This document shows positions 48,035 through 48,061 of a stretch of DNA of 64,000 bases, one piece after another. A program made the position numbers and the translations under genes. The stretch's first letter is position 1; every line of letters starts with the position of its first letter. The DNA is from Escherichia coli. GTDB taxonomy: Bacteria; Pseudomonadota; Gammaproteobacteria; Enterobacterales; Enterobacteriaceae. Under the pieces are notes generated by a model. The model was not told the DNA's origin. It ran no database searches and worked only from the letters and a program-made list of their open reading frames with translations. The stretch lies in the NCBI RefSeq assembly GCF_003334305.1, contig NZ_QOWS01000002.1. One strand, given 5' to 3'.

Positions 48035-48061
48035 TTATCGGCAAGGGACGGGTAATCTTTA
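48035..48061 (-). promoter_or_regulatory. Sigma-28 (FliA) class 3 promoter for flgMN, inside the 3' end of flgA
   Basis: Minus strand TAAAGATT-N11-GCCGATAA, a match to the sigma-28 consensus TAAAGTTT-N11-GCCGATAA. Confidence 0.8.

Follow-up and report, generated by a model that had tools for sequence, protein, structure and literature searches.

The flgM promoter belongs to textbook flagellar regulation, in which sigma-28 (FliA) drives the synthesis of its own anti-sigma factor, and this much is already known. The closest described systems are the flgM promoters (flgMp) of Escherichia coli K-12 and Salmonella, where overlapping flgAMN and flgMN operons show the same gene order, flgA-flgM-flgN, and the same dual class 2 and class 3 control as the locus analysed here. 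The whole flgA-flgM gap of K-12 and the 28-mer recovered there by FliA ChIP-seq are identical to ours, with no sequence difference. The promoter of motA (motAB-cheAW) resembles that of flgM in being a canonical, strongly conserved class 3 FliA promoter at the end of an upstream flagellar gene. Unlike the flgM promoter, however, it lies truly inside a coding sequence, that of flhC, where its -10 element fixes residues Ala177-Asp178 of FlhC (bioRxiv 10.1101/188474). The class 3 promoter of flgKL, which is also present in the DNA we analysed (TCAAGTCCGGCGGGTCGCTGCCGATAAT, plus strand, 56177..56204) and is identical to the K-12 FliA ChIP-seq motif, has the same layout as that of flgM, since its -35 element follows the stop codon of flgJ, the class 2 gene upstream, at a distance of 5 nt. 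Like flgMN, flgKL combines a sigma-28 promoter of its own with class 2 read-through, but its -35 element, TCAAGTCC, is much weaker (13 of 16 matches and 16.2 bits, compared to 27.4 bits for the flgM site). Finally, flgA of Salmonella SL1344 contains an RcsB box whose 14-mer, TAAGAATATTCCCA, is identical to the one found here and occupies the same flgA position, 649 (Huesa 2021, PMC7913699 Table 2, Fig. 7C). The RcsB binding and regulation data come from Salmonella alone, and the E. coli gap differs from that of Salmonella in being approximately 17 nt shorter and in having a stop hexamer that is not TATAAT.

The window, a stretch of 64,000 nucleotides of E. coli DNA (contig NZ_QOWS01000002.1, RefSeq assembly GCF_003334305.1), carries this locus on its minus strand. 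The 219-aa flgA gene (48067..48726; ORF list, NCBIfam TIGR03170 with E=6e-36, RefSeq annotation) ends with the stop codon TAA at 48069..48067. It is followed by flgM (47698..47991; NCBIfam TIGR03824, E=4e-20), which encodes the 97-aa anti-sigma-28 factor and is the first gene downstream of the promoter, and by the export chaperone gene flgN (47277..47693; NCBIfam NF012003, E=2e-84), the second gene of the flgMN unit. On the other side flgB diverges at 48881; the identities of all four genes are confirmed by NCBIfam equivalog models and by the RefSeq annotation. The 75-nt flgA-flgM intergenic region (47992..48066, minus strand) contains the entire core promoter and the 5' UTR. Read directly, positions 48061..48035 of the minus strand are TAAAGATTACCCGTCCCTTGCCGATAA, consisting of the -35 element TAAAGATT (48054..48061), which matches TAAAGTTT in 7 of 8 positions and is part of the K-12 FliA ChIP-seq 28-mer (PMC4183435), the 11-nt spacer ACCCGTCCCTT (48043..48053) and the -10 element GCCGATAA (48035..48042), which matches the consensus in 8 of 8 positions. 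This amounts to 15 of 16 matches to the consensus TAAAGTTT-N11-GCCGATAA, and the direct read bears out the near-consensus site that the first-pass annotation had reported at 48035-48061 of the minus strand. The A at position 6 of TAAAGATT is the commonest base there among the 78 loci compared below, and it is also found in the bona fide FliA sites of flxA, aer and speA (PMC4183435). The motif shares its strand with flgM, and 43 nt separate the end of the -10 element from the ATG (47991). The implied start lies approximately 36 nt upstream of flgM, so that the distance of about 40 nt given in the first-pass annotation was roughly right. The comparison with K-12 that it had proposed as a check shows that the gap is identical: MG1655 and C600 (RefSeq annotation) have the same 75-nt flgA-flgM gap with the same sequence, and a strain of the K-12 lineage shows 100% identity over a 121-nt region.

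We then evaluated the strength of the motif against the composition of the window. It is the sole sigma-28 match with at most one mismatch in the 64 kb. There are four matches with at most three mismatches, where 0.5 would be expected, and none of 100 shuffles contains as many. In addition, we scored the sequence with a position weight matrix (PWM) derived from 23 FliA ChIP-seq sites located elsewhere (Fitzgerald 2014 Table 2), the two sites within the window having been left out. The flgM motif scores 27.4 bits and ranks first of approximately 128,000 positions; the second-best match reaches 17.7 bits, and the top score among 20 shuffles is 21.9 bits. The flgM sigma-28 motif is real and far above chance.

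Two other sites in the window deserve mention. A sigma-28-like site in the sense direction within flgD (CAAAGTTACGGCCACCATCACCGATAAA, plus strand, 50115..50142) scores 17.7 bits, which is within the shuffle range. It is the same in K-12, where no FliA ChIP-seq peak is listed for it, and it is probably non-functional. A perfect GCCGATAA is also found at 48817..48824 on the plus strand, facing flgB in the divergent class 2 flgA-flgB control region. It is not accompanied by a good -35 element, hence it was missed by the consensus search, and it is probably the -10 element of the sigma-28-dependent, MarA-activated promoter flgBP2 (NAR 2026, PMC12781870).

Published experiments connect the motif to FliA. 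The exact 28-mer TAAAGATTACCCGTCCCTTGCCGATAAA is a strong FliA ChIP-seq site for flgMN in K-12, with a FAT (fold above threshold) value of 48 (Fitzgerald 2014, PMC4183435 Table 2). To place the peak we transferred NC_000913.2 coordinates to the window via MG1655. As a check of the transfer we used two motifs, both of which agreed to 1.5 nt or better, and the coordinates that Kim 2012 gives for flgM. The peak centre maps to approximately 48024, about 25 nt downstream of the motif, an offset that is as expected for the holoenzyme. Moreover, genomic SELEX with the sigma-28 holoenzyme gives a peak in the flgA/flgM spacer (PMC5493296), and sigma-28 ChIP-chip reports a signal, designated 'F', at the same spacer (Cho 2014). 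Overexpression of fliA in a delta-flhD background restores flgM expression to wild-type levels. Deletion of fliA in motile MG1655, in contrast, leaves flgM RNA at 318 compared to 451, a difference that does not reach significance (PMC4183435). The small size of this change means that the promoter is competent but adds little to the class 2 flgAMN transcript under those MG1655 conditions. The first-pass annotation had described the site as known biology, a class 3 promoter that drives flgMN, and the K-12 ChIP-seq site together with FliA-dependent flgM expression agrees with this. We therefore consider the motif to be the known flgMN class 3 promoter, flgMp, of the E. coli chromosome, with a probability of roughly 0.93. 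FliA function in the strain of the window would carry over from K-12 by sequence identity.

According to this reading, FliA-RNA polymerase would recognise TAAAGATT at -34..-27 and GCCGATAA at -15..-8, and transcription would begin approximately 36 nt upstream of the flgM ATG, near 48027. Since FlgM is the anti-sigma-28 factor, its own synthesis would be tied to free sigma-28 in a negative feedback loop, and the same promoter would provide FlgN late in assembly. Both genes are additionally part of the flgAMN transcript, which comes from a class 2, FlhDC-dependent promoter located upstream of flgA. The core promoter lies wholly within the 75-nt gap, with only sequence upstream of -40 extending into flgA, where the conserved RcsB box at -51..-64 is a separate regulatory input.

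Within the species, every one of the 5426 complete E. coli genomes has a match to a 1.2-kb query, and strain E2865 matches this query at 100% identity. For a 101-nt query with the gap at its centre, 5303 of the 5426 reach at least 99% identity. The most divergent E. coli genome sampled has four differences, all of them outside the -35 and -10 elements. Beyond the species, a scan for FlgM yielded 80 loci from Escherichia, Salmonella, Citrobacter, Enterobacter, Buttiauxella, Kosakonia, Atlantibacter and other genera, and we compared the 78 Enterobacteriaceae loci, the one in the window included, that have both flgA and flgM. Each of the 78 carries, upstream of flgM, a sigma-28 motif that matches the consensus at 12-15 of 16 positions and has a spacer that varies in sequence but is always 11 nt long. 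The distance from the flgA stop codon to the start of the motif is 5-6 nt in most loci; in Buttiauxella it is 26 nt and in Atlantibacter 114 nt. When 74 distinct sequences, which represent more than 20 genera, are aligned, T-AAAG of the -35 element and T-GCCGAT of the -10 element are invariant, whereas the spacer columns are only 40-80% identical. Invariant elements around a drifting spacer are a classic phylogenetic footprint. The comparison of the loci also reveals that the Escherichia flgM leader is approximately 17 nt shorter than that of other Enterobacteriaceae (43 compared to approximately 60 nt from the -10 element to the ATG). The segment absent from the Escherichia leader (window 47992..48034, compared with loci L002-L081) is GC-rich, as exemplified by GGCGCCAACGCCGCGAA.

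A further conserved element is found upstream of the promoter, within flgA. When 60 distinct flgA genes of Enterobacteriaceae are aligned by codon, third-position entropy is by far the lowest in the last 8-10 codons, with a value of 0.25 for the codon window that begins at codon 210 compared to a gene mean of 1.24. Codons 212-215 (GAT GGG AAT ATT; 48093..48082) have a mean entropy of 0.053 and rank first of 117 four-codon windows; the second independent window has an entropy of 0.65. An entropy of at most 0.21 is reached by only 4 of the 120 informative codons, three of which are consecutive at 212-215, an arrangement obtained in 29 of 20,000 permutations. This segment coincides with the RcsB box TAAGAATATTCCCA (plus strand, 48078..48091), which lies in codons 212-217, has its centre 57.5 nt ahead of the inferred sigma-28 start and fits the pattern TN(G/A)GAN4TC(T/C)NA. 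The pattern alone is not rare, as the window has five matches compared to 2.3 expected, and the case therefore rests on conservation and on the published electrophoretic mobility shift assay (EMSA). In that assay, phospho-RcsB binds a Salmonella 23-mer with the same 14-mer, and binding is lost when the box carries a point mutation (PMC7913699). The decrease seen by RNA-seq in the same study is confounded by the repression of flhDC by RcsB (Huesa 2021, PMC7913699). Regarding conservation, the RcsB consensus is kept in 76 of the 78 loci. The constrained third positions correspond to box positions 14, 11, 8 and 5, which are invariant or nearly so, and the freely varying one corresponds to position 2 of the box, an N. 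Buttiauxella and Atlantibacter, whose sigma-28 promoter sits 26-114 nt from the flgA stop codon, keep the box as well. Thus, the 3' end of flgA is truly constrained, and the published RcsB operator is the best explanation of this. By likeness to Salmonella, on which presumptive binding in E. coli is based, codons 212-217 are a true case of an operator within codons, adjoining the sigma-28 promoter. The maintenance of the operator at synonymous sites across genera supports a putative direct Rcs input at flgM.

We also considered an UP element as the main cause of the constraint at the 3' end of flgA and rejected it. The invariant bases include G/C positions that match RcsB half-sites, the only freely varying third position is the N of the box, and the codons persist where the promoter has moved by 26-114 nt. 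The four other exact matches to the RcsB pattern in the window are all on the plus strand, at 43240..43253, 23140..23153, 26299..26312 and 51511..51524, and the one at 43240, TAAGACTTTTCCCA, resembles the osmB box.

The evidence for the position of the transcription start is indirect. A published flgM fusion designated '+1 to 105' spans the first 23 codons (Romilly 2020, PMC7549644), which implies a 36-nt 5' UTR and a start at 48027, an A located 8 nt after the -10 element on the minus strand. We infer this nucleotide to be the sigma-28 start. The TSS tables of Kim 2012 and Cho 2014 list no FliA-dependent 5' end at approximately 48027. Their sole flgM end, with 14-21 reads, is reported by Kim 2012 as 1129417(-), with 14 reads and a 66-nt UTR (PMC3415461, supplementary file 2). 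In the window this end corresponds to position 48057, which is the G of TAAAG and falls within the -35 element of the sigma-28 promoter. No sigma-28 motif was found upstream of this end by Cho 2014, where it is assigned to sigma-70. The 48057 end is distinct from the sigma-28 start, though it is not at odds with the sigma-28 promoter.

Folding of the 5' UTR is no more stable than that of shuffled sequences, whether it is taken from the inferred sigma-28 start (z=0.18) or from the 48057 end (z=0.85), and for this reason we make no claim of RNA structure for the conserved CCCTCRATGAGGA. Just upstream of the flgM ATG, CCCTCAATGAGGA (minus strand, 47999..48011) is nearly invariant across genera. 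In it, an anti-Shine-Dalgarno CCTC pairs with the Shine-Dalgarno sequence GAGG three nt off, with a predicted energy that is no better than that of shuffles, and its role is possibly translational control of flgM. Within the gene, codons 2-4 of flgM (47980..47988) have synonymous-site entropies of 0.24-0.69 compared to a gene mean of 1.02. Either a constraint on translation initiation or the site at which OmrA/OmrB pair, published for codons 1-9, could account for this.

How do other explanations compare? That the sigma-28 match arose by chance and has no promoter function is a reading to which we give practically no weight. All that speaks for it is that short motifs can arise randomly, and the weaker matches in the window, such as the one at 50115..50142, do fall within the shuffle range. 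The flgM motif, however, scores above all shuffles, its elements have stayed invariant across genera while the spacer drifted, and the ChIP-seq, SELEX and expression data back its function. A different proposal is the one made in the first-pass annotation, which placed the promoter in the 3' end of flgA and took it to explain the sequence constraint inside that coding region. Such a dual use of the same bases as promoter and codons, which would account for the flgA constraint, is very improbable. It has in its favour that contacts of RNA polymerase upstream of about -40 would reach the last flgA codons, the flgA stop codon being at -42..-40, and that the last 8-10 codons show exceptional conservation at synonymous sites. 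The motif, however, begins at 48061, 5 nt past the flgA stop codon in the window as in K-12, and an overlap of the core elements with flgA codons, the test for an intragenic 'duon', is found in 0 of the 78 loci. In agreement with this, the flgMN site is intergenic in Fitzgerald 2014 (PMC4183435), where it is printed without the parentheses reserved for intragenic sites, as opposed to the motA site, which appears as '(flhC)motAB-cheAW'. The flgM sigma-28 promoter is intergenic and constrains no codons, and because it is outside flgA it cannot explain the constraint in the flgA coding sequence. The constrained codons lie upstream of it, and their pattern fits the positions that the RcsB box specifies. 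These codons are still kept in Buttiauxella and Atlantibacter, whose promoters are 26 and 114 nt from the flgA stop codon; the flgA constraint therefore does not track the promoter. The reasoning of the first-pass annotation fits the motA promoter in flhC rather than flgA/flgM, and a confusion with that promoter is the likely source of the error.

A third explanation concerns the identity of the main promoter in the gap. It holds that most of the flgM transcription that starts there comes from a sigma-70-type promoter whose -10 hexamer overlies the flgA stop codon and which starts at approximately 48057-48061, the sigma-28 site being secondary; the RcsB box would fall between its -35 and -10 positions and possibly control it. 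The observations behind it are of several kinds. The candidate -10 hexamer TAAGCT (minus strand, 48069..48064) overlaps the flgA stop codon and ends exactly 7 nt before 48057, the only E. coli 5' end in the TSS tables, which was assigned to sigma-70. The SalCom TSS of Salmonella, 17 nt below the RcsB box, is at the equivalent place (Huesa 2021, PMC7913699). A perfect TATAAT (cTA-TAA-T) encloses the flgA stop codon in 58 of the 78 loci, where Escherichia has TGTAAG and the offset TAAGCT. Furthermore, deletion of fliA barely alters flgM RNA. Together, the TATAAT pattern, the SalCom TSS and the 48057 end suggest a weak sigma-70-type start (minus strand, 48057..48069) with the RcsB box in its spacer. 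To make it the main source of flgM transcription from the gap is, in our judgement, unlikely. The 48057 end has very few reads (14 and 21), obtained from a laboratory stock of MG1655 whose flagellar expression may have been low. No -35 element is recognisable, and the hexamer is weak in Escherichia. A scan of the minus strand with sigma-70 and terminator consensus sequences returned nothing relevant; the candidates TAAGCT and TATAAA fall below its thresholds. The 48057 end could also be a product of RNase E processing of the flgAMN mRNA, as RNase E sites are reported for the 5' regions of flgM and flgA in Salmonella (cited in PMC12399333). The TATAAT may in part reflect preferences for the Leu codon, the stop codon or the termination context. 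FliA occupancy by ChIP-seq is strong (FAT 48), and FliA alone drives flgM to wild-type levels. We retain flgMp as the sigma-28 promoter of flgMN and regard the sigma-70-type start as a possible, weak companion.

Seen as a whole, the end of flgA may, together with the flgA-flgM gap, constitute a single compact and conserved control region, in which an RcsB operator with dual use across Enterobacteriaceae (flgA codons 212-217), a sigma-70-type start with its -10 element over the flgA stop codon, and the sigma-28 promoter are combined, and in which Rcs would act directly on FlgM synthesis through the box, independently of its repression of flhDC. We put this forward tentatively, with the odds somewhat against it. 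The useful outcome for the locus itself is a correction: the flgM site is intergenic and not an example of a promoter that constrains codons, the proper example being motA/flhC. The cross-genus analysis makes a small addition to this, namely an RcsB operator that is held at synonymous sites in more than 20 genera. Should the control region with its three inputs prove true, envelope stress, sensed through Rcs, would act on FlgM directly, apart from the known repression of flhDC.
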